Position numbers and translations under genes: made by a program
The notes under the pieces: generated by a model
Told to the model about the DNA's origin: nothing
Seen by the model: only the letters and a program-made list of their open reading frames with translations
Databases searched by the model: none
Shown: positions 17,550-58,805 of the stretch, piece by piece
Layout: every line of letters starts with the position of its first letter
Position numbering within the stretch: position 1 is the stretch's first letter
Source: an uncultured Gammaproteobacteria bacterium
Lineage (GTDB): Bacteria > Patescibacteriota > Patescibacteriia > UBA9934
Direction: 5' to 3'
Assembly: GCA_964599455.1 (NCBI GenBank)
Contig: CAZREA010000004.1
Coordinates: forward strand, 1,628 to 65,627
DNA: 64,000 bases

Positions 17550-20456
17550 ATGCCCGACACTACCGCCCCCCAGCGATCACCTCACTCGCAAGACGAAGTA
17601 AATCTTTTGGAATACTGGGAAAAACACCAAATTTTTGAGCGTTCGGTCAATGAACGCCCGGAAGCAAAACCCTATACATTTTACGATGGTCCGCCGTTTG
17701 CCACCGGTTTGCCGCATTATGGGCATATTGTTGCGAGCGTCATGAAGGATGTGGTGCCACGTTTTTGGACCATGCGCGGTTATCGAGTTGAGCGTAAATG
17801 GGGCTGGGATTGTCATGGTTTGCCGATCGAAAATATTGTCGAGAAAAAGTTTGATTTCAAATCCAAAAAAGATATTGAAAATTTTGGCATCGGCAAATTC
17901 AATGAAACGTGCGAGTCGGTGGTTTTGGATTATGTCGAGGATTGGAAAAAGGTCATTCGTCGATTGGGTCGTTGGGTCGACATGGAAAATGCCTACAAAA
18001 CCATGGACTTGCCGTTCATGGAATCCATTTGGTGGGTGTTTAAAACCATGTGGGAAAAAGGGCTTATTTACGAAGGCTACAAGCCCATGCACATCTGCCC
18101 TCGATGCGAGACCACGCTGTCAAACTTTGAGGTCAGTCAGGAATATGCCGATGTCACCGATATTTCAGTCACGGTCGCGGTCAATCTGACGAGTGGCCAC
18201 CATGAAGGCGCAAAAGTATTAGTGTGGACCACTACGCCATGGACCTTGCCGGGAAATGTATTGATTGCTGTCGGTGCAGACATGGAATATGCGCTCGTAG
18301 AAATGGAAGGGGAAAAATATATTCTCGCTTCATCATGTGTCGAGCGTGTGTTTGCGGGAAAATTGTATAAAGTCATGGAAACGTTTTCGGGTTCAACGCT
18401 CATCCATGCAACCTACGACCCAATCTTCCCGTACTTCCTTCATCACGCCAATGCATTCCGTGTTGTTTCGGCCGATTTTGTTTCCGATGAAGAGGGAACG
18501 GGGATGGTGCACATCGCTCCTGCATACGGAGAAGATGACATGCGTTTGGGCGAAGCAGAAAAAGTGGCACCTCTTTTTCATGTCAAAATGAACGGTCATT
18601 TTATACCGGAAGTATCTGAACCGCTTGAAGCCGAGGGATATCGTGTTGGCGAAGTGCCCGTGAAGGCAAAGGGAGCATATAGCGAAATAGATATTCAAAT
18701 CATCAAATGGCTCGCACATCACGGAAAACTTTTTGCCAAAGAAAAGCTCGTCCATAGCTATCCGCATTGCTGGCGTTGCGATACGCCACTTTTGAACTAT
18801 GCAACCCATTCTTGGTTTGTGCGGGTGTCGAGCATGGTTGATGATTTGGTGAAGAATAACGAGTCAACACATTGGGTGCCGGCAAACATGAAATACGGCC
18901 GTTTTGGCAAACGTCTCGAAGGCGCACGCGATTGGGCAATTTCGCGTTCACGTTTTTGGGGAACACCGTTGCCGGTTTGGCGGGCAGAAGATGGAGAGAT
19001 TCTCGTTATTGGCTCAAAAGAAGAATTGGAGAAATATGTGGGGCATGCGGTCACGAATTTGCACAAACATGTCATTGATTCTTTAGCGATCGAGAAAGAC
19101 GGCAAAATCTATCGTCGTATTCCTGAGGTTCTTGATTGTTGGTTTGAAAGCGGATCAATGCCGTACGCGCAGCTTCACTATCCTTTTGAAAATAAGGAAG
19201 GATTCGACAAGAAGTTTCCTGCAGACTTTATTGCTGAAGGACAGGATCAAACCAGTTTATGGTTTTACACGCTCCATGTCATTGGTAATGTGCTTTTTGG
19301 CAAACCCGCGTTCAAGAATGTGATTGTCAACGGGATTGTATTGGCGGAAGATGGAAAAAAGATGAGTAAGCGTCTAAATAATTATCCTGACCCGATGATG
19401 GTGATGGAAAAATATGGTGCTGATGCCGTGCGGTATTACCTAATGTCAACACCGGTAGTGTCGGCAACGGATTTACGTTTTAGTGAATCAGGTGTGGAAG
19501 AAGTGGGGAAAAAATTCATCACGATTTTGCGTAATGTCGTTTCGTTCTACAAATTGTACGCTGAGCATGACGACTATCGTTCGCCGAGCAATAAACATGT
19601 TCTTGATGCGTGGATTGTTGCTCGACTGAACGAGACGCTCGAAGAACAAACACGCGCCATGGAATCGTATGAACTTGATCATGCTGCTCGTGTGTTGCAA
19701 ACATTTGTTACTGATCTTTCCACGTGGTACGTGCGCCGCTCACGCGATCGCATGAAGACCGAAGGCGATGATCGCATCGAAGCGCTTGCAACCTTGCGCT
19801 ACGTTTTGGAAATGTTCTCAAAGATGCTCGCGCCCTTTATGCCGTTTTTGGCCGAGATGATCTATCGTGAGATCGGACAAAAATCCGAAGGTGCATCGGT
19901 ACACTTGGAAACCTGGCCTGTCACTGTAAAGACAGTCGGGTCGGTCGTCTCTGGGGACGTACTCGAGCAAATGGGTATCGTCCGCGCGCTGGTATCTCGC
20001 GCCCTCGAAGTTCGTGAACAAGCAGGAATCGCCATTAAACAAGCCCTTGGTGAAGCAACGCTCTCGGTGCCCTCCGGCGATTTTGCGGACGCATACGTAC
20101 AAGTTTTTTGTGATGAACTCAATATCAAAAAAGCAACCGTACAAAAAGGAGATCTTGGCGTAACGCTAAATCTTGCCCTTACTCCCGAACTTTTGCGCGA
20201 AGGTATGGCTCGTGAAATTACGCGCAAGATTAATGGTATGCGCAAAGAGGCAGGGTTGAGTATTCAGGATCGCATTAGTGCCGCGATTTTTTCGGACAGC
20301 GACGAGGTTAACGTGATGCTCGACGAACACGGTGAATCATTACGTGTCGACATTCTTGCGACCGAGTTGCACTTTGGCAAGCATGATGATTGGGAACACG
20401 TCGCTTCGTTCCGTGTAAATGAAATTGATGTGTGGATTGGGTGGACGATAATGTAG
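17550..20456 (+). CDS. ileS: isoleucine--tRNA ligase (type 2)
   Basis: 'PPFATGLPHYGHI' HIGH region; 'WGWDCHGLP'; 'KMSKR' KMSKS; 968 aa. Confidence 0.9.
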   Translation: MPDTTAPQRSPHSQDEVNLLEYWEKHQIFERSVNERPEAKPYTFYDGPPFATGLPHYGHIVASVMKDVVPRFWTMRGYRVERKWGWDCHGLPIENIVEKKFDFKSKKDIENFGIGKFNETCESVVLDYVEDWKKVIRRLGRWVDMENAYKTMDLPFMESIWWVFKTMWEKGLIYEGYKPMHICPRCETTLSNFEVSQEYADVTDISVTVAVNLTSGHHEGAKVLVWTTTPWTLPGNVLIAVGADMEYALVEMEGEKYILASSCVERVFAGKLYKVMETFSGSTLIHATYDPIFPYFLHHANAFRVVSADFVSDEEGTGMVHIAPAYGEDDMRLGEAEKVAPLFHVKMNGHFIPEVSEPLEAEGYRVGEVPVKAKGAYSEIDIQIIKWLAHHGKLFAKEKLVHSYPHCWRCDTPLLNYATHSWFVRVSSMVDDLVKNNESTHWVPANMKYGRFGKRLEGARDWAISRSRFWGTPLPVWRAEDGEILVIGSKEELEKYVGHAVTNLHKHVIDSLAIEKDGKIYRRIPEVLDCWFESGSMPYAQLHYPFENKEGFDKKFPADFIAEGQDQTSLWFYTLHVIGNVLFGKPAFKNVIVNGIVLAEDGKKMSKRLNNYPDPMMVMEKYGADAVRYYLMSTPVVSATDLRFSESGVEEVGKKFITILRNVVSFYKLYAEHDDYRSPSNKHVLDAWIVARLNETLEEQTRAMESYELDHAARVLQTFVTDLSTWYVRRSRDRMKTEGDDRIEALATLRYVLEMFSKMLAPFMPFLAEMIYREIGQKSEGASVHLETWPVTVKTVGSVVSGDVLEQMGIVRALVSRALEVREQAGIAIKQALGEATLSVPSGDFADAYVQVFCDELNIKKATVQKGDLGVTLNLALTPELLREGMAREITRKINGMRKEAGLSIQDRISAAIFSDSDEVNVMLDEHGESLRVDILATELHFGKHDDWEHVASFRVNEIDVWIGWTIM

Positions 20457-20511
20457 GGATCAGGCATACCTGATCCCAAAAGAAAAAAACGGACCAAGAG
20501 TCCGTTTTTTT
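20456..20511. terminator. tandem hairpins after ileS (second is a bidirectional intrinsic terminator)
   Basis: GGGATCAGGcataCCTGATCCC, then A-run ACGGACcaagagTCCGT T-run. Confidence 0.6.
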
Positions 20512-20526
20512 ATAGATCCGAAAACG

Positions 20527-20712
20527 CTATTCATCAATCCCTTGTTTATTCAGGGCATCATTTCTTAGAATTTCTTGAACTTTTTTTTGAGCGTCTGGAA
20601 GAAGACTCGCGATATCTCTAGTGACATCCTTTATATTATCCGGTGGTTGAGTATTGGGAGTTCGTTCTTGTGGTTTTGGTGCTTGAATCCTAATTATTTT
20701 TGAATCGCTCAT
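20527..20712 (-). CDS. small hypothetical protein (~61 aa from internal Met)
   Basis: ORF only; lies between ileS and the ileS-end duplicate. Confidence 0.3.
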   Translation of the reverse strand: MSDSKIIRIQAPKPQERTPNTQPPDNIKDVTRDIASLLPDAQKKVQEILRNDALNKQGIDE

Positions 20713-20885
20713 AGGATAATAGTAAAGATATAAATTATAGAATAAAGTATACTCCAATATTGTAATTTATAAAAAAGCTGATTTAATTAACAAAACTGCG
20801 GCAAAGGTTGTCATTGAATGCGCAACTTCATGTGCATACTAATGGCAACAACGTGTTTAGCTCATATTCAAGGGGCCGATCGGGT

Positions 20886-20928
20886 GAGTGAAATTGATGT
20901 GTGGGTAGGATTGAAGCAAGATGCGTAA
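20886..20928 (+). other. duplicated ileS 3' end (encodes ..SEIDVWVGLKQDA*)
   Basis: 16/16 nt identical to ileS 20420-20435 and in-frame homology to NEIDVWIGWTIM*. Confidence 0.6.
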
Positions 20929-20940
20929 AAAAAACATGAG

Positions 20941-20971
20941 CGCGGCCGATCTCCGAGAGGTCGGCCGCGCA
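20941..20971 (-). terminator. GC-rich intrinsic terminator H1 after paralog A1
   Basis: GCGCGGCCGA-loop-TCGGCCGCGC, T-run on minus strand. Confidence 0.6.
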
Positions 20972-20991: not shown

Positions 20992-21576
20992 TCAGATCTC
21001 GTCGGGACGATCGATTCCGAACTTGGCCTGTACGGCCCTGACCCGTTCGGTGAGCTTGATGATCTCCTCTCGGCTGGAGAAGCCGTCGATCGTGAAGTCG
21101 ATGTCCTCTTCCAACAGGAGCTTGAGCATCCTGATCTCGCGCTCGAGCCCGTGGGCCAAGAGCTGTGCCATCGGGTCTTCCGGAGTATTCACCAGGGAGT
21201 CGAGCATGCTCTCAACCTTCTCCTTGTAGGTGAGCGGGACGGAGGACGAGCGCCTGCGTCGTCGCAAGAGTTTGCTCAAGCGGTGCAGCAGGTTCCAGGG
21301 GATGGCGTCCGCCAGGAAGAGGAGAAGCTTCAGCCTGCGGGACTTTGCGTAGGCTACTCCTATCACACCGTGGTTGACCTCGAACAGGCCGACGTCCTCG
21401 TCGTGACTGTTCCAGACGATGTAGATGCCGTCTGGCAGCGCGTCGGTGTCCGCGGTGCTGATGATGACCCCGTTGTGCTGGATATCTACGTTGAAGTTCC
21501 CGTGTTCGCCCCGCCGCCGTACGCGATAGGAGCCAGGGTTCAGGACTCTTCGGCGATCACCTGTTCTCTCGTTCAT
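20992..21576 (-). CDS. GC-rich cassette gene A1 (194 aa); shares N-terminal domain with A2 and A3
   Basis: GAGGAG SD before internal ATG; 'SYRVRRRG..LPDGIYIVW..GLFEVNHGV' N-domain; GC-rich. Confidence 0.55.
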   Translation of the reverse strand: MNERTGDRRRVLNPGSYRVRRRGEHGNFNVDIQHNGVIISTADTDALPDGIYIVWNSHDEDVGLFEVNHGVIGVAYAKSRRLKLLLFLADAIPWNLLHRLSKLLRRRRRSSSVPLTYKEKVESMLDSLVNTPEDPMAQLLAHGLEREIRMLKLLLEEDIDFTIDGFSSREEIIKLTERVRAVQAKFGIDRPDEI

Positions 21577-21757
21577 GGCACTCTCCTCAATGTACGGGTG
21601 ATTGGTGGTACTTGACGACAGTTCTTTGTCGTCACCTTTTATCTTCCTTTTTGTAAAGAAAGGCAAAAGGTGACGTTGAAGCAACGGAAGATAGTAGAAA
21701 AGACCGGAGATTTTGTAAAGGAGAGAGGAAATCAAGAAGAGGAGTCCCATAAAAACA

Positions 21758-21795
21758 GTTCGCGGTCGATCCCAAGAGGAATCGACCGCGTGAAC
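21758..21795 (-). terminator. GC-rich intrinsic terminator H2 after A2
   Basis: GTTCGCGGTCGAT-loop-ATCGACCGCGtGAAC, T-run on minus strand. Confidence 0.6.
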
Positions 21796-21807
21796 GAGAG
21801 GTTTCTT

Positions 21808-22269
21808 CTACGAAGGTGCGTGCGCAGACTCGTTGCCGAGCTCGGCCTCATGGTTGGGGGAGCGCAGAAGGGTGTCGAACGGACTTCTGGTGGACAGTGC
21901 GAGCTCCTCGAACACGCCTTGGCCCTCCTCGTCGTCCTCCACCACTCGCAGGGACGGCCGGGGTCTGCCGACCACTTGGAGTGCTGGCCCTTGGCCTTTG
22001 CCACCCTGGATGAGTCGTGGTGGGTAGCTCGACGTCGAGCGCACCTCCTCGTTGCTCTTGGCGTTGCGCGGTACACCTCCGACCACCGCGAACGTCCCGA
22101 CGACCACCTGGTCCAAATAGAGGACCTCGTAATCTCCGTCGAGAAGCGGGCGCGAGCACTGTGTGACCCGCCCACTCCTGTACTCGATCGTGACGCGAGC
22201 GATTCCTTTGCTCTCGTCTCCCCGCGGCCGTACTCTGTAGACTCCTGACTTCTCAGCTTCTGTAGTCAA
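21808..22269 (-). CDS. GC-rich cassette gene A2 (153 aa), TTG start with GGAGG SD
   Basis: 'VYRVRPRG..PLLDGDYEVLYLD..GTFAVVGGVP' N-domain shared with A1 and A3. Confidence 0.55.
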   Translation of the reverse strand: MTTEAEKSGVYRVRPRGDESKGIARVTIEYRSGRVTQCSRPLLDGDYEVLYLDQVVVGTFAVVGGVPRNAKSNEEVRSTSSYPPRLIQGGKGQGPALQVVGRPRPSLRVVEDDEEGQGVFEELALSTRSPFDTLLRSPNHEAELGNESAHAPS

Positions 22270-22387
22270 CTCAGCCTCCGCTTTGCGTTCATTGAACGCG
22301 TCAGGTGAATAGTTATCGTCTTAAGGACGGCGCATCTTACACGCAAAAGATGTTTTTTGTAAAGGTTTTTGGCTATAAAAACATAAC

Positions 22388-22417
22388 GCGGTCGACTCTC
22401 CGAAGAAAGTCGACCGC
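22388..22417 (-). terminator. GC-rich intrinsic terminator H3 after A3
   Basis: GCGGTCGAC-loop-GTCGACCGC, T-run on minus strand. Confidence 0.6.
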
Positions 22418-22501
22418 ACGAAGGGTGAGTTGCCTGCAGCGGTCAGGCGTCGCCGACCTCCTTTCTGGGGTGTAGTGAGCGATGGGGGAAGTAGTTGTTG
22501 C

Positions 22502-23221
22502 TCAGTCCGGGGTGGAGTCTTGCTCGACCGGTTCGTCCTCGATCTCGACGGTTGGCTCGGACTCCTGCGAGGCTGCCTCGCTGGTGCTCGAGGTCGGGAA
22601 CTCGGTCGCCTTGAGGGCGTCGAGTCGTCCCAGGAGCGTGTCGAGGTCCTCCGGGCTGCTGAAGCCGGCGGTTTTGAGCACGTCCTGATAGCCCTCGCTC
22701 TGTTTGCGGATCTCTACGGCCAACTCGCGGAACGGAATCATCATCGCCTCGAGCCCCTCCATCGTCCGCGACCAGTCCTGTACCATCTCCTCGATGAGTC
22801 TCGGCTCCAGCTTTTGTATCTTGCCGCAGTGGGGGCAGGACTCGCCTTTCGCCGCCGCCGCGAGCATCTCCAGGGGCATGAGCTTGCGCTCTGCCCACTG
22901 CTTCCAGGAGGATGGTTCACGCTTACCGCCTGCGCTGAAGCGCAGGAACACGACAGGACCACCTGCCAACAGCAGGTCCAAGTCGAGCTCGGCCCTTCTG
23001 TACAGCCGCCTTGCCTGACCGGGCACACCGTTCTGCACGGTGAAGCGGCCGATCTGCGTTCCCTCGTAGAAGATATCGTAGTCCCCATCCGTGAGGGGGG
23101 ACTCGCCAGTGGAGAAGATCTCGGCGGTCTGGCTGTCGATCTCGACCGGAATGATAGCCTCCTGGCCCTGCAGACCGACCATGTAAGCGGAACGGGTGGG
23201 TTGTTGTTGGGGTTCGGACAA
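22502..23221 (-). CDS. GC-rich cassette gene A3 (~239 aa; start chosen at TTG with GAGAGG SD; track start 23311)
   Basis: 'AYMVGLQG..PLTDGDYDIFYEG..GRFTVQNGVP' N-domain; C-terminal 'CPHCG' and acidic tail. Confidence 0.5.
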   Translation of the reverse strand: MSEPQQQPTRSAYMVGLQGQEAIIPVEIDSQTAEIFSTGESPLTDGDYDIFYEGTQIGRFTVQNGVPGQARRLYRRAELDLDLLLAGGPVVFLRFSAGGKREPSSWKQWAERKLMPLEMLAAAAKGESCPHCGKIQKLEPRLIEEMVQDWSRTMEGLEAMMIPFRELAVEIRKQSEGYQDVLKTAGFSSPEDLDTLLGRLDALKATEFPTSSTSEAASQESEPTVEIEDEPVEQDSTPD

Positions 23222-23278
23222 GGTTGCCTCTCTCAGCCCGTGTGGGCGTTTGGTGATTGGTGCGTGGACAGCTTTTTC

Positions 23279-23331
23279 TTCGCCGTCACTTTCTGCTTTT
23301 GAAGCATTCAAGTTCAGAAAGTGACGGCGAA
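23279..23331. promoter_or_regulatory. perfect 17-bp inverted repeat (TTCGCCGTCACTTTCTG / CAGAAAGTGACGGCGAA, 19-nt spacer)
   Basis: Sits about 60 nt upstream of A3 and between divergent genes; operator-like or hairpin. Confidence 0.4.
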
Positions 23332-23429
23332 AAACTGTTCTTTTTAGCGAAAAATCTCCTTTTTGTCAAACTCCGTCCCAAAACATACAGCAAAAATCAG
23401 CCCATATCGTACAATGAACAAAGAAAACT

Positions 23430-24269
23430 ATGAAAGACATCTCTTCCCATCTCCTGTTGTGTACGACCAACGACCCCGAATCTCTGCTTATTACCAAGAT
23501 TGCTCGGGCGCTTTTTCTCCCGATTCTTTCTTCTGCTCAACAACACGGTGCCCGTCTGAGCCAAGAATCTCATCTTTTTGATCGCGTTCGAGAAATGACA
23601 TCAGAAGCGAAAACGATCGTCATTGTAGAAATTCCTGGTCCCGATGAAGAAGGCATACTGAGAAAGGCGGGATATGAAGTGGTGATTATCGATCATCACA
23701 CCTACCCCAATCTCAATCGCATGCAGCCGCAATCGTCACTTGAACAATTTTTGCATTATTTTGAAATTTCCGACGAGAATTTGCTTGGTGTTGGATTTGA
23801 ACCGTATCTGGTAAAAGGTGTGGGTTGCATTGATCGCGGTTTTTTGTGGGAATTACAAAAAGATGGCTATAGCGATGAAGAGGCGCGACAGATTCGAGAA
23901 TATTACGTTGCACTTGAACGAGAAGTTGATCCGCGGTTTACCGAAGTCATGCAGATTGCGAAGGAGGCGTGGGAGCACAGAGAGTTACACGAAGGTATTT
24001 GGATTATTCGTTCATCGCATCAACAGGTGCATATTCGCAATGCAATTTCATTTTTGTTTGCCGATGCCTTTCCTCACGAAGCACCACCGGCGATTATCGT
24101 TGAGGGTGACGGCAAAATCACATTACAAGATCATGATCGTGCCAAGGAATTCTTTACTGCTTACGGCGGTTATCTTTTTGGAATGGAAACATGTTGGGGC
24201 ATAACGCCAGAGATGGGTGTCGTCCCCACCGTGGACGCTCTTTTGGCCAGACTCAGCGACATACGCTAG
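23430..24269 (+). CDS. hypothetical protein (279 aa)
   Basis: ORF only; 'VVIIDHHT' is weakly DHH-like. Confidence 0.45.
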   Translation: MKDISSHLLLCTTNDPESLLITKIARALFLPILSSAQQHGARLSQESHLFDRVREMTSEAKTIVIVEIPGPDEEGILRKAGYEVVIIDHHTYPNLNRMQPQSSLEQFLHYFEISDENLLGVGFEPYLVKGVGCIDRGFLWELQKDGYSDEEARQIREYYVALEREVDPRFTEVMQIAKEAWEHRELHEGIWIIRSSHQQVHIRNAISFLFADAFPHEAPPAIIVEGDGKITLQDHDRAKEFFTAYGGYLFGMETCWGITPEMGVVPTVDALLARLSDIR

Positions 24270-28515: not shown

Positions 28516-29781
28516 TTACGCCTTCACTTCCGCCGAGTTGCGGATGGCGGTGGAGCTGATGTCCCACCGCCCTTTGATCTCGACGAACAGATCTTCGTAG
28601 CCTTCCGGGATACCGACGTCCCGCAGCGTTTCGAACCGGTTGCCGTTGGCCCGGCCCGCCACGTAGAACTTCGTTCCGAGCTCCCGGAATCGCTGACAGA
28701 TGTCTGCCGGCGTCAGGTCCTCGGTGCAGAAGTTCGGGTCGAGGAGGCGTCGCAGGGTGTCGACCCCCACCAGGAAGCCGACACTGGGGAAGAGAGCTGC
28801 TTTCTTGAGATAGATGCCCGCTTCCTTCAGCACGATCACGGCCCTACGACCGAAGAAGGTGCTGACTCGTCTGGCCATCTCGTCATCTGGCACCATGCCT
28901 TTGACGGGGTGGTCGGCGTTGAGCTGGCACACGACCTCCATGCCGGTCTGTTCCTCGCAGGCTCGGGCCATGGCTGCGTGGCCGCGATGCCAGTCATTGA
29001 ACGATCCGGCAAAGAGGATGTGTTTTTTGCCGTCGATGTGGTCGAGTCCGTAGCGGCTGCCATCCGGCCAGTAGACCGGCTCGCGGTAGAGCGTGCTCGG
29101 TTCGATTTTCGGTTCGATGATCCTCGGCCTGAGTACACAGCCGCCTTCGGTTCCCGTGATGTTCCCCTCCTCGATGAGGTCATCGTCCAGAGGGATCTGC
29201 GGCAGTCCAGCGGCGAACAGCAGGAGGTTGAGGCCGATGAGATCGACCTGGTCACCCTGTCGGTTGCGGACTTCTGCTCGCTGGCGAAAGGCCTCATCTT
29301 CATCTATCGGCTGGTTATGTAGCTTGTGGGTCTTGAAGAAGCCCACGTGCACGACCAGGAAGAAGTCTGGCAGGCGCAGGGCCACCCAGACCTCGTCGCT
29401 GCCCTTACGATCTTCACGTTTGCCATCCTTCTCGCGCTCGGTGGCCACACTGGCGGTTCCACCGAGACCAGCGGGCGTGCCCGTTCTGCTTTCGGCCTTC
29501 ATGATCTCGATTGATGTCTCGAAGGCTTGCTGAGCCATGGCCATTGCGGTCTCGCGAGCCACGGACTTGGGGACGCGGCGACTCAGGAGGTCGCCGAGGG
29601 CGTGACCGGCGTAAGGCAGGCCGCCGTTCAGGATGAGCCCGCTGCATCCGGGCACCTGCCACAATATCTTCTGCAGCCCTGCGCCCGCGCCGGTCATGTC
29701 GAGGGTCAGGCGCAGCGGGATATTGGTCTTGAGGAGGGCGAGCACGGCCTTGAAGGTGGGGGTTTTGGTGATATGGGGCAC
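28516..29781 (-). CDS. fusion protein: unknown Gly-rich N-terminal domain plus C-terminal NMN/NaMN adenylyltransferase (NadD/NMNAT family); GTG start with AGGAG SD
   Basis: 'ILFAGSFNDWHRGH' (HxGH nucleotidyltransferase) and C-terminal 'ISSTAIRN'; N-domain 'DMTGAGAGL..LNGGLPYAGHALG' unassigned; GC-rich. Confidence 0.55.
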   Translation of the reverse strand: MPHITKTPTFKAVLALLKTNIPLRLTLDMTGAGAGLQKILWQVPGCSGLILNGGLPYAGHALGDLLSRRVPKSVARETAMAMAQQAFETSIEIMKAESRTGTPAGLGGTASVATEREKDGKREDRKGSDEVWVALRLPDFFLVVHVGFFKTHKLHNQPIDEDEAFRQRAEVRNRQGDQVDLIGLNLLLFAAGLPQIPLDDDLIEEGNITGTEGGCVLRPRIIEPKIEPSTLYREPVYWPDGSRYGLDHIDGKKHILFAGSFNDWHRGHAAMARACEEQTGMEVVCQLNADHPVKGMVPDDEMARRVSTFFGRRAVIVLKEAGIYLKKAALFPSVGFLVGVDTLRRLLDPNFCTEDLTPADICQRFRELGTKFYVAGRANGNRFETLRDVGIPEGYEDLFVEIKGRWDISSTAIRNSAEVKA

Positions 29782-29930
29782 GGGAACTCCTGTTGTGATG
29801 TGAGTGTGATATGAGTTATGAACGAAGACTTTTCGAAAAATGCTCGCCGAAGCGAGGAAAGAAGGTAACAAAAAATTGACCAAAAGTCAATTTTCCTCAG
29901 TAATATTGGCAATAAGATTTGTACAAAAGA

Positions 29931-30636: not shown

Positions 30637-31173
30637 TTACACCTTCACGCGACGGGGAGCGAGGATGTATCCGTCGCTGCCGTCCCGTGTAATGTCCGCC
30701 CCTTCGCGGACTTGCTCTGGTGCGATGCGCAGGGGTATTGGAGGGCGGCCGGCTGCGTGCAGGAGAAGACTGCTCGCCACGATGATCCGCGTCTCGCTGC
30801 GAGGATTGCGGAATGCGAGATCGACCTCTGCGTCGATGACGAAGTCGACACAGACGACGAGCACATCTTTCTCGCCAGCAAACAGAGTGATGAAGGCCGT
30901 GTCGCCCTCCGAAAGACCGATGCCGATCGCTGCGCCCGGTTGCTCGCGAGCGTGAATATACCTTCGTACTCGCTCCCAAGCAGCACCTGCCTGATCGATG
31001 GCCTCCGCCTCGCTGGAGTTTCGCGATTTGTTGGAGATGAGGGATCCAAGCAGGAGTCCTGCTTGAGAAAAGGTGTGTCCAACAAGGGGCGCGGTTGCGC
31101 CTCCCTCGATCCCGATCACGAGGTCGGGTCGTTGCCTGGCTAAACCTCGCAGGGTTCTGTGCGGTGTGGTCAC
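30637..31173 (-). CDS. GC-cassette hypothetical protein (178 aa; GTG start with GAGGAGGA SD)
   Basis: 'LVIGIEGGATAPLVGHTF..AIGIGLSEGD' motifs, unassigned; GC-rich. Confidence 0.45.
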   Translation of the reverse strand: MTTPHRTLRGLARQRPDLVIGIEGGATAPLVGHTFSQAGLLLGSLISNKSRNSSEAEAIDQAGAAWERVRRYIHAREQPGAAIGIGLSEGDTAFITLFAGEKDVLVVCVDFVIDAEVDLAFRNPRSETRIIVASSLLLHAAGRPPIPLRIAPEQVREGADITRDGSDGYILAPRRVKV

Positions 31174-38696: not shown

Positions 38697-38957
38697 AGGG
38701 GAGGAACAGATGGGACGGATTGTAGACGGATTTAGGGGATATGGAAAGGGTGCTGAATTGAATCTAAAATTATTGACTTTCCTGCCGTTTTTGTTACCTT
38801 AGTCTATCGTTCAGAGAACATTGTTCGTGTTGAACGTAGCGTTTTGGACCTAAAAAGATGGATCTAAAACGCCGTGCTCAACCAATGGCCTGCATCATTC
38901 CGGTATCTATCGGAAGAAATGCCTGCCCACGGCTTTCCAAAAAGGAGGCTCGTCGCC

Positions 38958-39860
38958 ATGTCGACACGCCTTGCTGATTTGCCTTATGGAGTCGTCGATC
39001 AGCTGCATCGCCAGCTCGCCAGCAACCTGACCGCCGAGGAGGGACGGAAGCTTCATGATCGCCCCGAGCTCTGGAAGGTCATGGTCGAAGCCCTGCGCAG
39101 GCAGATAGGGCCTAAACTTGTTCACGGTCGGTTCACCCCGCTCGCGGACAAGATCGCGATGGTGAAGACGTGGCCCGGCATCAACCCGGCCGACGTCGAC
39201 GCCGCGTTCGCCACGGCGATGGAGAACGGGACGATCGCCGGCTACGAGGCCGAGGTCGGGAAGAACCCGTTCCTCGACATCGTCGTCACGGTCTACCGCG
39301 AGTCCATCCCCGCCACCGTCGTGTACGCGCGCGAGCGCATGCGTGAGGTCTGGGGTGACAAATACAGCGAGTGGGAAGCAGCCTACGCGCAGGACGTCGA
39401 TGACGACCGCGTGAAGGCCATCCCGGGCGCGAAGCAGTTCACTCCCAACCGGATCGTCATCGAGGTTGTCGACTTCGGGGCGAACTGGAACCTGAAGGAC
39501 GGCGTCGTGCTTGAGGAGGTTCAGAAGTCCCAGGCTGCTCAGCTCGCGAGTTTTGCCGTGATCTACAACGCCGTGCAGAGCCCCAAGTGGCTCTGGCAGA
39601 TGGACGGTAAGAAGGTACCGTATGCCCTCGTGGCTGCGCTTCTGCTCAACGTGCCGAACCACAGAAGAGATAGGGAGACAGAGGAGATGGAGCGTGCCAT
39701 GATGTATGCGCTCATCATCGACAGGCCACTGCCTTACGAGGCGTGGCGTTACTCACCGAGCGTCTTGCGCGACGGTGGCGAGGCGAGGCTGAGCGGCGAC
39801 TACGTCGGGTGCCGTTTCCACAACTGCGCCGTGCCTGTCCTCCGGGAGTACAAGCGCTAG
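38958..39860 (+). CDS. GC-cassette hypothetical protein (300 aa; internal ATG with AGGAGG SD)
   Basis: Visibly GC-rich; no recognisable domain; two hairpins downstream (GTCCGCgaaGCGGAC, GATACGT..ACGTATC). Confidence 0.5.
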   Translation: MSTRLADLPYGVVDQLHRQLASNLTAEEGRKLHDRPELWKVMVEALRRQIGPKLVHGRFTPLADKIAMVKTWPGINPADVDAAFATAMENGTIAGYEAEVGKNPFLDIVVTVYRESIPATVVYARERMREVWGDKYSEWEAAYAQDVDDDRVKAIPGAKQFTPNRIVIEVVDFGANWNLKDGVVLEEVQKSQAAQLASFAVIYNAVQSPKWLWQMDGKKVPYALVAALLLNVPNHRRDRETEEMERAMMYALIIDRPLPYEAWRYSPSVLRDGGEARLSGDYVGCRFHNCAVPVLREYKR

Positions 39861-42873: not shown

Positions 42874-43368
42874 GCTTGGCGCGCCGGACGGCTATGCGTG
42901 GTTTACCACGTAAGGAAAGTCCGAACACCCTTTGTGCAGCAATGCACAATGAGCAAAGGCGTTGTTAACGACAACCAGGAAGAGATCGCAAGATCAGAGC
43001 CTAGGGAAAGTCTCATCTCGACGCAAGAACGGATGAGGTCAAAATCGGCGGGAAACGGCCGACAATGACGCAACAGAGACATTCAAACCTCCTTCGATTT
43101 GTTCATGGAGGCAAAAGGTGAAACGTGATGGGGACGCAAGTTTCCCATCTCCCTGCATGGTGACATGCAGGGTGGCAAACCCGCCTTGGTGCAAGAGCAA
43201 GATTGGTAGCTCGCTTGCCCCCAACGGAGCTCCGACCCACTTTGCGCAAGCTAGGTGGGGAGGAGCGAAGTGGGGCTTAGGTCACTGGCAACAGTGATCA
43301 CAGAGAAATGGCCGTCTCCCCCGAGCGTAAGCGAGGGGCCAGACAAAATTCGGCTTACAGGCGCGTCC
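42874..43368 (+). ncRNA. rnpB: RNase P RNA
   Basis: 'GGAAAGTCCGAACAC' (CR-I) and 'ACAAAATTCGGCTTACAG' (CR-IV/V); promoter and terminator flank it. Confidence 0.75.
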
Positions 43369-43409
43369 AAACAAAAACACACCTTCGTCAGCGAAGGTGT
43401 GTTTTTGTT
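43369..43409. terminator. bidirectional intrinsic terminator after rnpB
   Basis: AAACAAAAACACACCTTCGtcagCGAAGGTGTGTTTTTGTT. Confidence 0.7.
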
Positions 43410-43434: not shown

Positions 43435-43860
43435 TGACGCGATCGGAATAAAAAAGAGCTCAAAAGAAGATCTCTCGAGGGCAAAAAGCAAAGGTTATAC
43501 AAAACGTGCATTTACAAAAAGGATGTCCTCGGCAAATAATCGGTATATGTTCCACCGTTTTCGCAAGATGAGCGGTGGGACATGGATGGCGTGCAAAGGT
43601 CCGTGCTGGGCGGATAATGCCTACGTTCTCAAATGGGTGAGGGCCTGGGTGTATTCAAGCCTTTGTACGCCATCCTCTCTTTTTGTCTGGGCGGGACCTG
43701 GAATGATGCATTTCGCGATAGCCTTCAGAAGGTCCTCGCTGAATGGTTTTCGCGGCGATGCGCTTGTCGAGTGGTTCGGCAAGCGGTCCGGTGTTGTTCC
43801 AGGTCCCGTTTTTATCCCACGCGCGCTCGTGGGATTTTCCTTAAAACATGAACCCCCGCC

Positions 43861-43896: not shown

Positions 43897-44514
43897 CTAC
43901 TTCACTGCTTCGGCCGCTGCGGCGTCGGCAGGAGGAGAAGCGGGGATGTCGCCGTAGTAGACATCGAGCTCACCGATCGGCGCAGGGCTTTCGGGGGCGA
44001 TGAAGAGAGAGCCCTTCTGCTTGAAGCGCGGAACTCCCTCGTCCTCCTTATTCCTCCTGGGGATGACATTGCCCGGCTTTCTGCGGGGGAGTCTGACTTT
44101 CGTCCAGCCCCTCTGTGTGATTGCCTCCACTCGCTTCGGCCTCTCCAGCTCGAGGTCCGTGTAGTGGCGAGAGAATTCGCCGGGCGACCACGACTGCATC
44201 GCTCGACACCGCTGAAGCAGCGTCTCGGCGTGCTCGATCTGTGTCTTGATGTCCTGAGGATCTTCTGCCGTACGGACTCCGTTCCGCAGAGCCCGCATGC
44301 GACGAATCACCAATGTGAACGCATGGTGCGTTCCGTTGATCTTCATTCCGTCACGAATGCGTTCTGCGGTAGCGGCAAATTGCGAGATGGTCCGAGTAGC
44401 TGCGTTTTTACGACCTCGATCCTTTTCCTCTTTGGCAGGCTGAGGGGGATGATGTTTGCGGGGGTGCCAGGTGGACGTGTGCAATGAAACGACCCTCTTG
44501 TCTCTGCCCGACAT
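43897..44514 (-). CDS. GC-cassette hypothetical protein (205 aa; start uncertain, no SD found)
   Basis: GC-rich ORF with a downstream hairpin; basic, no domain recognised. Confidence 0.4.
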   Translation of the reverse strand: MSGRDKRVVSLHTSTWHPRKHHPPQPAKEEKDRGRKNAATRTISQFAATAERIRDGMKINGTHHAFTLVIRRMRALRNGVRTAEDPQDIKTQIEHAETLLQRCRAMQSWSPGEFSRHYTDLELERPKRVEAITQRGWTKVRLPRRKPGNVIPRRNKEDEGVPRFKQKGSLFIAPESPAPIGELDVYYGDIPASPPADAAAAEAVK

Positions 44515-46914: not shown

Positions 46915-48792
46915 TTATACCTCAATAATCACCGGCAGAATCATCGGTCGTCGTTCCGTCTGTTGGAACAAGAATTTTCCGAGCTCCTCACGAATCGTGG
47001 TTTTTACTTGGTCGGGATCAAGTGGAGTGGAGGGAGTAGAATCTTTCAACGCCTTTGCCAAATGGAAACGCATTTTGTTCACGAATTCTTTGTTCTCCTT
47101 CATCTGAATAAAGCCACGACTAATGATGTCGGGTTCAGTAATAAGGGCACCGGTCTTTTGTTCGAATTGCGCAATGACAACGAGCATACCATCTTCAGCC
47201 ATCGCTTGACGATCGCGAAGAACAACTTGGGAAATATCTCCTACACCCAGTCCATCGACATACACATGATCAACAGGCACTTTTTCGTTGGTCATGTGTG
47301 CTTCGCCGAATGGCGATCCCGCTTTGGGGGGAAGAATTTCGATAATCTGTCCATTGTCTGCAACGAAGACGTTTTCTTCGCTCCATCCCATCGAATAGGC
47401 AACATCAGCATTTTCACGCAATAAAAAGTGGTTGCCTTCAATCGGCATGTAGTACTTTGGTTTAAAGAGCGCGATCATGAGTTTGATGTCCTCTTTTTTT
47501 GCATGACCTCCGGCGTGAACGTCCATGAGATCTTTGTGAATGACACGTGCGCGCTTGCGATACAGAAGATCTTTGAGGCGCTGTACGGAAGCCTCATTTC
47601 CCGGAATAACTGAGCTTGAGAAAATAAGTGTGTCATCCTGATCGAGACGAATAAAGCGGTGTTCATCATTGGCAATACGTGAAAGTGCCGCATTTTTTTC
47701 ACCCTGCGCACCTGTACAGATAACGGTAATTTTTTCGGGAGGGTAATTATTCACTTGTTCAATTGGAATAATATTTTTTTCTGCTACTTTAATAAATCCA
47801 AGTTCTTTGGCGATTTCGACGTTGGTTTTCATGGAATACCCATCGAGAGCGATTTTTCGTCCACAGCGCTCGGAAATTTCCATGATCTGTTTCACGCGGG
47901 ATAAGAGTGAAGCGAAGGTAGCGATAATCACGCGACCTTTGGCCTTTTCAATAATGCCCTGCAGTTCTTCGCCAATAATTTTCTCAGATTTTTGATGGCC
48001 AGGATGCTCAGCATTGGTGGAATCTCCCATGAGCAGTGTAACGCCCTGTTCGCCAAGGCGAGCCATTTTATGAAAATCTGCAGGTGCTTCCCCGACAGGA
48101 TGGAAGTCATACTTCCAATCTCCGGTGTGCGAAATGATGCCGTTAGGTGTTTCGACCACAATTCCTGCAGCGTCGGGGATATTGTGATTGATGTTGAAAA
48201 AGTGCACTTTAAAAACACCAAGTTGGAGCGTTGTTTCGATGGAAATGGTTTTAACGGTAACCTGAGATTCGGGAAAATCTGTTTGTCGCTTTTTGATAAT
48301 ACCGGCCGCCATTGGAAGGGCGTAGACGGTGGGATTTCCAATTTTTGGAAGTACATGCGGAATAGCGCCGATGTGATCGTAGTGACCATGGGTAATAATC
48401 ACGCCACGGATATTTTTTTCTTTTCCGCGAAGATACGACATGTTCGGGATGAGGTAGTCAACGCCAGGCATTTCTTCGGTGGGGAACATGAGTCCCATGT
48501 CGATGAGAATGATGTCGTTTTTATACTCGATGAGTGTACAGTTGATGCCGACTTCTTCAAGTCCACCTAAAACGATGACACGAACTTTGTCATCGGTGGG
48601 TGCGGGATAGAGCGTGGGAGCATTATTGTGCTCGGTGCTCACAAGTGGGGCATTTGGACCGCGTTGTTTAGAGGCGCGGAAGTTTCCGCGAGCAAATGAT
48701 GGGCGTTTGCCTTGGGGTGCACCTGCGGCCGGAGCAGCACGATGCGGTTGTGAGAATGGTTTAAAATTTCCCATAACAGTGAAATTAAGCAC
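46915..48792 (-). CDS. rnj: ribonuclease J
   Basis: Metallo-beta-lactamase 'ITHGHYDHIGA', beta-CASP and C-terminal domain; basic N-terminal extension. Confidence 0.85.
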   Translation of the reverse strand: MLNFTVMGNFKPFSQPHRAAPAAGAPQGKRPSFARGNFRASKQRGPNAPLVSTEHNNAPTLYPAPTDDKVRVIVLGGLEEVGINCTLIEYKNDIILIDMGLMFPTEEMPGVDYLIPNMSYLRGKEKNIRGVIITHGHYDHIGAIPHVLPKIGNPTVYALPMAAGIIKKRQTDFPESQVTVKTISIETTLQLGVFKVHFFNINHNIPDAAGIVVETPNGIISHTGDWKYDFHPVGEAPADFHKMARLGEQGVTLLMGDSTNAEHPGHQKSEKIIGEELQGIIEKAKGRVIIATFASLLSRVKQIMEISERCGRKIALDGYSMKTNVEIAKELGFIKVAEKNIIPIEQVNNYPPEKITVICTGAQGEKNAALSRIANDEHRFIRLDQDDTLIFSSSVIPGNEASVQRLKDLLYRKRARVIHKDLMDVHAGGHAKKEDIKLMIALFKPKYYMPIEGNHFLLRENADVAYSMGWSEENVFVADNGQIIEILPPKAGSPFGEAHMTNEKVPVDHVYVDGLGVGDISQVVLRDRQAMAEDGMLVVIAQFEQKTGALITEPDIISRGFIQMKENKEFVNKMRFHLAKALKDSTPSTPLDPDQVKTTIREELGKFLFQQTERRPMILPVIIEV

Positions 48793-55920: not shown

Positions 55921-55997
55921 GGGCCTGTAGCTCAGTTGGTTAGAGCTCCGAGCTTATACCTCGGTGGTCCCTGGTTCGAATCCAGGCAGGCCTACCA
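55921..55997 (+). tRNA. tRNA-Ile (anticodon UAU), CCA encoded
   Basis: Anticodon stem CCGAG/CTCGG with loop ctTATac; Ile-type D-arm TAGCTCAGTTGGTTAGAGC; T-arm GGTTCGAATCC. Confidence 0.7.
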
Positions 55998-58316: not shown

Positions 58317-58805
58317 ATGCGCACCCTTACTCTCATCGCGTTCTTCCTCCTTGCCTCCCGCGCATTTGCGCAGGAGTCCACTTTGCCCGCTCCAACCAGC
58401 GTCGTCATCATGGCGCAAGAGTCGAATGATCGTGTGCGGAATGCGGTGGTGTCGAATGCCATCGTCGTCAACTGGACCACCTCGCCGCCCACGATCTCGA
58501 TCTTCGTCGAGTCCGTGGACACCGGGAGACACATCCAGACGCTCAGCCTGTCCGGCGAACGCAACGGCGCGTTCTGGATCTTCCGCGTCCCCGTCCAAGC
58601 CAGCGTGTCCTCCCCGTTCGTCGAGGTCATCCTCGGGTCCGGGAACGTGTTCGCGGTGACCATCGACGAGGCGGGCGAACGTCAGTTGGTCGCCGTCAAC
58701 CAGGTAGCCGAGGTCTACTTCCCGTTCAACGCGAACGGGGATGAGTACTGCGTTTCCCTGAGCAAGCCGATCGCCTGCATGGGGAGCAATTGCCCGCCGA
58801 TCTGA
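58317..58805 (+). CDS. GC-cassette secreted hypothetical protein (162 aa, GGAGG SD)
   Basis: Signal peptide 'MRTLTLIAFFLLASRAFA'; GC-rich. Confidence 0.5.
   Translation: MRTLTLIAFFLLASRAFAQESTLPAPTSVVIMAQESNDRVRNAVVSNAIVVNWTTSPPTISIFVESVDTGRHIQTLSLSGERNGAFWIFRVPVQASVSSPFVEVILGSGNVFAVTIDEAGERQLVAVNQVAEVYFPFNANGDEYCVSLSKPIACMGSNCPPI

Follow-up and report, generated by a model that had tools for sequence, protein, structure and literature searches.

Three tandem genes with a shared small beta domain in a variable slot beside ileS of a Candidatus Uhrbacteria chromosome

How did three tandem GC-rich genes come to stand between housekeeping genes of a ~47% GC patescibacterial chromosome, and what might their products do? 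The genes, here named A1, A2 and A3, lie on a 64,000-nucleotide stretch of contig CAZREA010000004.1 (positions 1,628 to 65,627, assembly GCA_964599455.1; hereafter the window, to which all coordinates refer). A first-pass annotation, made from the letters of the sequence, had read them as paralogs with a constant N-terminal domain and divergent C-termini, and had proposed a polymorphic, secretion or packaging system in which that domain targets or anchors variable effectors or cargo. Our analysis leads, with slightly better than even confidence, to a different answer: A1-A3 would be anciently diverged, horizontally acquired and autonomously expressed accessory genes that resemble the morons of phages, and their beta domain would be a non-catalytic binding or assembly module.

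Three paralogs with a common N-terminal beta domain

All three genes are read from the minus strand, where the peptides quoted in the first-pass annotation were found at the positions it had reported. A1 (20992-21576) encodes 194 aa from an ATG start at 21576, preceded by the Shine-Dalgarno (SD) sequence GAGGAGAG at 21588-21581. A2 (21808-22269) encodes 153 aa from a TTG start with the SD sequence GGAGG at 22279-22275, and A3 (22502-23221) encodes 239 aa from a TTG start at 23221 with GAGAGAGG at 23234-23227. Each gene thus has its own SD site, as had been annotated. Two of the earlier starts were revised. For A1, the start at 21750 gave way to the ATG at 21576. For A3, the start at 23311, which would give 269 aa, is less likely than TTG 23221, since a hairpin with 28-bp arms occupies 23276-23334 and marks this segment as leader rather than coding sequence; a Logan gene call places the start further downstream, at 23182 (226 aa). 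The Logan calls for A1 (also 194 aa) and for A2 agree with ours, but the Logan contig on which they were made (L001) matches the window with 100% identity across 11,892 bp and these calls are therefore not independent evidence. The order GC3 > GC1 > GC2, where the numbers denote codon positions, was found only in the minus-strand frames, with GC3 of 0.82 for A1, 0.73 for A2 and 0.77 for A3. Consequently, the long open reading frames (ORFs) of the plus strand are shadow ORFs.

The three proteins share a five-strand beta domain of ~55 residues, encoded approximately at 21352-21534 (A1), 22069-22245 (A2) and 23018-23188 (A3). BLASTP with composition adjustment aligned every pair collinearly (A1/A2, E = 0.003; A1/A3, E = 2e-4; A2/A3, E = 2e-6), and Smith-Waterman alignments compared with 2000 shuffles yielded z = 6.7, 7.5 and 11.2, with none of the 2000 shuffles reaching the observed score. 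The two tests agree that the genes are true paralogs with a shared N-terminal domain, as first proposed, and that their similarity exceeds what composition alone produces. AlphaFold2, given a three-sequence alignment, returned a five-strand core with a pLDDT (predicted local distance difference test) of ~80 followed by a helix. In the full-length model of A3, the strands occupy residues 12-62, six helices follow and the acidic tail (209-239) is disordered; at a mean pLDDT of 60, this model is unfit for a fold search of the tail. The invariant residues of the domain (Y, V/I, D-G-x-Y, G-x-F, G-V) fall at turn and core positions, and no conserved polar residues of a catalytic type were seen in the domain alignment of the family. 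Judged from their sequences, A1, A2 and A3 are real paralogs of an orphan family with a previously undescribed small beta domain.

The duplications that produced these paralogs appear to be old. Where paired residues are identical, the three comparisons share a codon 12, 9 and 9 times; saturated sites would give 9.7, 10.1 and 10.5. Within the domain, the nucleotide sequences are 45-47% identical. Synonymous sites are thus saturated and the duplications ancient, contrary to the recent duplication first suggested. That protein similarity was kept despite this saturation indicates purifying selection on the amino acids.

Searches for relatives bore out the view that the domain is not one already catalogued, with no match in Pfam, NCBIfam, PHROG, PADLOC, PDB sequences or a fold library. 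No PHROG match fell below E = 7e-4, and no Foldseek match to BFVD below E = 0.1. A tblastn search of 50,697 phage genomes had no hits, nor did two viral-contig scans. With A3, A1 or an alignment of A1 with P0010 as query, no relatives emerged from GTDB genomes, IMG/VR or JGI metagenomes. k-mer searches with the three-sequence profile and with P0010 recovered the query proteins only, a weak negative given that the index also missed A1 and A3 where a match was expected. Rfam produced only sub-threshold chance matches on the hairpins of the region. The one search to find a relative was an exhaustive single-pass HMMER scan of 1.84 billion representative proteins with the N-terminal 100 residues as query, which returned A1-A3 themselves, one credible relative, P0010, and a set of giant repeat proteins. 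P0010 is a singleton of 328 aa encoded on a 1.7-kb contig from another sequencing run or metagenome, with unrelated flanks. In this protein, the domain occurs twice in tandem ahead of a helical tail that is acidic and contains Cys, and alignment with A1-A3 gives z = 4.0-13.7. Pfam, PHROG, PADLOC and NCBIfam offered no useful match for P0010 either.

These results bear on the idea that the ORFs are spurious and lie in a GC-rich non-coding stretch. Long ORFs do occur on both strands and have no homologs of known function, but the codon-position signature is confined to the minus-strand frames, protein similarity persists among the three copies and P0010 despite saturated synonymous sites, the SD sites, promoters and terminators fit the ORFs of the minus strand, and the AlphaFold2 beta core is confident. 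We regard this explanation as effectively refuted.

The giant repeat proteins (those with filamin, SpaA, Big_13 and DUF4397 repeats, and collagen-containing, tail-fibre-like ones) were set aside as motif-level matches after Pfam annotation. Their scores are sums of many weak matches to a hairpin motif, Y.V......VG.F.V.NG; the filamin link, for example, consists of 15 such matches in one repeat protein, no Pfam match to the filamin/Ig-like repeat (PF00630 and relatives) was obtained at E <= 1, and the model has five strands against the seven of that sandwich. The most pointed resemblance came from hhalign, which aligned the N-domain profile with the 36-40-aa repeats of P0011 and P0013 at 94.7% probability (E = 6e-8) over 22 columns. 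Since P0013 matches PHROG tail-fibre families and the anatomy of the A units is moron-like, the A genes could be remnants or derivatives of phage structural proteins, with a domain drawn from tail-fibre beta-hairpin repeats and a location in a degraded prophage or a phage-delivered region. However, the 22 columns amount to a single hairpin, whose motif is generic, as it also draws filamin, SpaA, Big_13 and DUF4397 repeats by summed weak matches. Furthermore, the phage and viral collections were empty of A homologs and no phage genes flank the cluster. We therefore consider a phage-structural origin unlikely, and the hhalign match is treated here as a motif-level resemblance.

Beyond the domain, the proteins go separate ways. 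The tails (85-170 aa) evolve fast, are partly disordered, and are of low complexity or helical: in A1, which also has an RRR run, a Leu-rich helix is followed by an RRRRR run and a helical tail, while that of A2 is rich in Gly and Pro. Divergent C-termini had been annotated, and the tails of A1, A2 and A3 indeed lack significant similarity to one another. The best pair, A1/A3, shares a GFSS..L..R..A motif (p = 0.047); the tails of A3 and P0010 align collinearly (p = 0.049), and that of A2 aligned with nothing. Against Pfam, NCBIfam, PADLOC, PHROG and PDB sequences, the tails gave no toxin, effector, cargo or enzymatic match, and a k-mer search with the concatenated tails found A3 itself only, in an index that also missed expected matches to A1 and to A3. 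The CPHCG motif of A3 had been called a ribbon, but it is a single knuckle with two Cys, at most an incomplete zinc ribbon. Zinc hook and zinc ribbon assignments were both rejected, as two Cys are present where four ligands are needed, and P0010 has a Cx4C instead; Zn-ribbon Pfam matches for A3 (E = 0.14-0.17) were below threshold.

A constant N-terminal domain with non-alignable tails, to which P0010 adds a two-copy architecture, is what led to the proposal of a targeting or anchoring module joined to variable effector, toxin or cargo tails of a polymorphic, secretion or packaging system. That proposal did not hold up. No signal peptide or transmembrane segment was detected in A1-A3 (maximum Kyte-Doolittle values over 19-residue windows, 1.09-1.57; hydrophilic N-termini), no N-terminal secretion or trafficking domain was found with Pfam or NCBIfam, and the tails match no library. 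No immunity-like gene accompanies the cluster either: after each ORF comes a terminator and next the promoter of the following paralog, with no small co-oriented ORFs between, and each gene would form its own transcription unit. The neighbours are ileS and DHH-like, TrmB and HD genes, and no secretion or encapsulin-type gene was recognised by Pfam or NCBIfam in the 42 ORFs scanned, out of ~65 long ORFs. Moreover, the marginal collinear similarity of the tails (A1/A3 and A3/P0010, p ~0.05) is better explained by divergence from a single ancestral tail than by shuffling of domains. Taken together, these observations make a polymorphic system very improbable.

Putative self-contained units in a slot downstream of ileS

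Each A gene is preceded by a predicted sigma-70-like promoter whose -35 box lies inside a common TTKACAAAA element. The minus-strand promoter-like sites are found at 23341-23369 for A3 (TTGACA at 23369-23364, a 17-nt spacer, TAAAAA at 23346-23341), 22334-22363 for A2 (TTTACA, 18 nt, TAAGAT) and 21691-21719 for A1 (TTTACA, 17 nt, TACTAT). Where 0.37 occurrences of the extended -35 motif TTKACRAAAARS would be expected in the window, there are four, three of them upstream of A1-A3. The fourth motif of this promoter type, TTTACAAAAAGG at 43511-43522 on the plus strand, is located just 3' of the RNase P RNA (42876-43373), with no convincing ORF after it.

Two of the transcripts would begin with a strong hairpin. 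In A3, the leader hairpin (23276-23334, minus strand; inverted repeat I1) has 28-nt arms that are 86% complementary and a 3-nt loop, and the 131-nt leader (23215-23345) folds at -49.9 kcal/mol (z = -6.9), a stability that none of 200 shuffles attained. In A1, the hairpin at 21630-21675 (minus strand; inverted repeat I2) has 21-nt arms, and the 121-nt leader (21570-21690) folds at -39.2 kcal/mol (z = -5.5).

All three genes end in a predicted intrinsic terminator on the minus strand. The A3 terminator (22375-22419) consists of a stem at 22386-22419 with 15 pairs followed by the U-run TATGTTTTTA, the A2 terminator (21751-21790) of a stem at 21761-21790 with 13 pairs followed by AACTGTTTTT, and the A1 terminator (20926-20970; inverted repeat I10) of a stem at 20940-20970 and a U-run. 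The stem sequence GCGGYCGA...TCGRCCGC occurs three times in 64 kb, once after each gene, where 0.00 would be expected, so the near-identical stems of the first-pass annotation stand. The A2 and A3 terminator flanks are identical at 18 of 21 nt (repeat D6) against 45-47% identity in the coding sequence of the domain, and a T-A pair of the A2 and A3 stems is replaced by a compensatory C-G pair in that of A1.

The P0010 gene has a similar layout. Its promoter, TTGACGAAAAGG..TATAAA, aligns with that of A3 under the common pattern TTGACRAAAAGG..TAWAAA; a leader hairpin of ~30 bp follows (z = -4.7), and the gene ends in a hairpin and U-run terminator. The P0010 ORF has a GC3 of 0.845 within flanks of 47% GC. 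At the level of consensus prediction, each A gene would thus be a self-contained cassette of promoter, SD, ORF and terminator, a plan that P0010 appears to share in its unrelated setting.

The slot that holds the cluster is bordered on the left by ileS (17550-20456, plus strand), which encodes isoleucyl-tRNA synthetase (Pfam tRNA-synt_1, Anticodon_1 and DUF5915 on the Logan gene call), and on the right by a conserved DHH-like gene (23430-24269, plus strand). We compared it with 27 ileS-orthologous loci of related genomes. The synthetase is at most 72% identical to that of any GTDB species representative, and the ileS orthologues place the organism in Candidatus Uhrbacteria (Patescibacteria). 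Gene order (rpe-rpiB-ileS-[slot]-DHH-like-(TrmB)-HD) is kept across the related loci, and orthologues of the DHH-like gene are found 3' of ileS in 23 of them. The slot measures 2973 bp in the window against only 9-240 bp in seven relatives (L006, L007, L009, L010, L018, L023 and L029), and in 14 others it holds 0.4-6.8 kb (0.8-6.8 kb in 12) of unrelated, lineage-specific ORFs. The A domain is absent from the slot ORFs and ileS loci of all 27. Because the slot is empty in seven relatives and variable in 14, we interpret the A cluster as an insertion at a hotspot. Some of the slot ORFs of the relatives are themselves GC3-rich orphans with TTGACAAAAA-type promoters, for example L012 13776-14363 (GC3 0.95) and L003 12935-14026 (GC3 0.73).

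A relic of the ileS 3' end (20881-20928, plus strand), ending in ADRVSEIDVWVGLKQDA and a stop, abuts the A1 terminator. It forms a direct repeat (D4) with 79% nucleotide identity to 20412-20445, the duplicated part of ileS being its last ~12 codons (20412-20456), and the true end of ileS now lies 469 bp upstream of the relic. As the relic abuts the A1 terminator, A1-A3 must once have stood directly after ileS. The AT-rich segment between them, ~20446-20880, looks like a later insertion into the 3' end of ileS that supplied a replacement end. This segment has 32-36% GC and contains a possible 61-aa ORF (20527-20712, minus strand), a promoter-like site (20773-20746) and a hairpin (20483-20511).

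The conserved stems invite a further explanation, according to which the units are distinct mobile gene cassettes and the 3' palindrome GCGGYCGA..TCGRCCGC is an attC-like recombination handle and not only a terminator. The 18 of 21 nt shared by the A2 and A3 hairpin stems and tails, against 45% in the coding sequence, the compensatory pair, the persistence of the layout around P0010 and the insertion hotspot would all suit such cassettes. Yet no integrase or recombinase was found among the scanned neighbours, which cover part of the window, and the U-runs after the hairpins are those of ordinary intrinsic terminators. Whereas an integron cassette is a promoterless ORF with an attC site moved by intI/attI, the A cassettes have promoter-like sites of their own. 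Moreover, none of the 27 related loci contains the palindrome, and just four cassettes are known. Two matches to the palindrome in viral contigs, both in coding DNA, were dismissed as chance. We give this explanation little credence. The same low standing applies to its broader form, in which Uhrbacteria and related Patescibacteria exchange a pool of self-contained GC3-rich cassettes, each made up of a promoter, a 5' hairpin, an orphan ORF and the palindromic terminator, which enter hotspots such as the 3' end of ileS while carrying no recombinase, with the palindrome as handle and A1-A3 and P0010 as one family. If true, gene cassettes in the Candidate Phyla Radiation (CPR) would move in a way not described before.

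Codon usage and the origin of the cluster

The A island has 60-63% GC in a genome of ~47% GC, with flanking genes at 46-50% GC and GC3 of 0.43-0.55. GC3 of the A genes is 0.73-0.82 against 0.28-0.60 in host ORFs. Their codon usage is uncorrelated with that of the bulk host (r = 0.05) and close to that of the P0010 gene (r = 0.87) and of the other GC3-rich ORFs of the window (r = 0.91). For Glu, the A genes use GAG at 86%, in contrast to the gene for ribosomal protein L19, also in the window, which has nine GAA and no GAG codons.

This composition could in principle be native, if A1-A3 were very highly expressed genes whose GC3 reflected translational selection or GC-biased gene conversion. GC1 and GC2 of A1 are host-like, only its GC3 being extreme; the promoters and terminators predicted for the cluster are strong and its 5' hairpins stabilising, as such genes might have them; and GC3-rich orphans recur in relatives (L012 and L003, above). 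However, L19 has a GC3 of 0.47 and an AAA:AAG ratio of 10:5, opposite to the A genes, and this disfavours native translational selection. Furthermore, the family is missing from the ileS loci of the 27 relatives and from GTDB species representatives, with the slot empty in seven. A native origin is accordingly improbable.

Several features of the window share this composition. GC3 of the window ORFs is bimodal: besides A1-A3, four ORFs, 28516-29883 (minus strand), 38874-39860 (plus), 43897-44514 (minus) and 58317-58805 (plus), have values of 0.68-0.85, A-like codon usage and almost no family matches. The first shows a weak, cytidylyltransferase/NadD-like C-terminus, and the N-terminus of the last resembles a signal peptide; this ORF overlaps the 5' part of a PolyA_pol ORF on the opposite strand. 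The GC-rich ORF 30637-31173 (minus strand) lies ~1 kb from 28516-29883 and is 34% identical to it over 56 aa (E = 0.002-0.004), and the two, like A1-A3, may be paralogs of foreign composition that have diverged. Elsewhere, ARAGORN predicted a tRNA-Ile with the anticodon TAT, uncommon in bacteria, at 55921-55997 (plus strand).

In the horizontal acquisition that we favour, the A family would have diversified elsewhere, in a GC-richer genome or mobile element, and would then have entered the Uhrbacteria chromosome as ready-to-express units, much as morons join phage genomes. The A proteins would be soluble and cytoplasmic; their beta domain might bind a partner or assemble, and the tails would vary partner or regulation. 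At the mRNA level, the 5' hairpins probably give the transcripts protection against 5'-end-dependent decay. Such protection is known in Bacillus, and by analogy with that genus the presence of an RNase J gene in the window (46915-48792) is consistent with it.

Several observations weigh against this scenario. No donor was identified, and no homolog appeared in the phage, viral-contig, JGI metagenome or GTDB genome collections. The cluster lies outside any recognisable prophage or mobile element, with no recombinase among the neighbours scanned, and only consensus predictions stand behind its promoters, transcription starts and terminators. A1 combines host-like GC1 (0.605) and GC2 (0.374) with a GC3 of 0.815, and the orphan with a GC3 of 0.95 in the same slot of L012 has a GC2 of 0.39; given this pattern, a simple gene transfer from a donor of 62-70% GC does not fit every case. 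Two GC-richer relatives, L016 (66% GC) and L011 (61% GC), match the overall codon usage of the A genes (r = 0.81-0.87) but not their GAG preference. Conservation of the terminator stems far beyond that of the coding sequence is left unaccounted for. Finally, the case for a binding module is weak, as it comes from the lack of catalytic-looking residues and not from positive evidence.

If acquisition of accessory genes is the right explanation, the A cluster would be an ordinary example of a common, poorly documented process, the gain of orphan genes in a variable slot of a CPR genome, with no bearing on any long-standing open question. Its value is then descriptive: a small beta domain that is new and was met in just four of ~15 billion proteins; a clear hotspot for insertion beside ileS, documented by empty sites in relatives and by a remnant of the gene's end; and a class of GC3-rich orphan cassettes that recurs in Uhrbacteria. 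The conservation of the terminator stems and the extreme GC3 beside host-like GC1 and GC2 may become of interest with more genomes.

Comparison with known systems

Small beta-barrel domains, such as domain II of EF-Tu and SelB, PilZ, MreC and trypsin half-barrels, are among the closest known systems for the domain itself. Neither the RxxxR nor the (D/N)xSxxG c-di-GMP-binding motif of PilZ was found in the A domain. Tail-fibre repeats (P0011, P0013; phrog_3904, phrog_21765) and Ig-like repeats (PF00630, SpaA PF17802, Big_13 PF19077) share with it the hairpin motif [DE]-G/T-x-Y-x-V-x(6-8)-V-G-x-F-x-V-x-N/G-G. In these cases, however, the similarity covers 22-48 residues and is significant only by summing repeats or by pairwise profile comparison, and the A proteins are small, single-copy, below Pfam thresholds and devoid of a signal peptide.

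As a gene cluster, A1-A3 resemble the lineage-specific ORFans and clusters of atypical genes that reportedly derive from horizontal transfer, in accounts attributed to Daubin and Ochman in 2004 and to Cortez and colleagues in 2009. The A genes likewise have a very narrow set of homologs, an atypical composition and a place in a variable slot. Classical bacterial ORFans are short and AT-rich, whereas the A genes are GC3-rich (0.73-0.82), encode proteins of 153-239 aa and belong together as paralogs whose shared domain is foldable.

The nearest parallel is the phage moron, defined by a promoter and terminator of its own, a GC content unlike that of its neighbours and its presence as DNA that related genomes lack (Cumby et al. 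2012, PMC3594210). Unlike morons, the A cluster stands between housekeeping genes of a bacterial chromosome and not in a phage or prophage, and it consists of three tandem paralogous units that are GC-richer than the host and lack phage homologs. Location in a phage or prophage is thus the one of four moron features that the A cluster does not share. The other three are all present, in that each A gene has a predicted promoter and factor-independent terminator of its own, the genes have 60-63% GC against 46-50% in those flanking them, and the A DNA is extra between genes that are adjacent in relatives; like morons, moreover, the A genes are small, with a function that is unknown or accessory.

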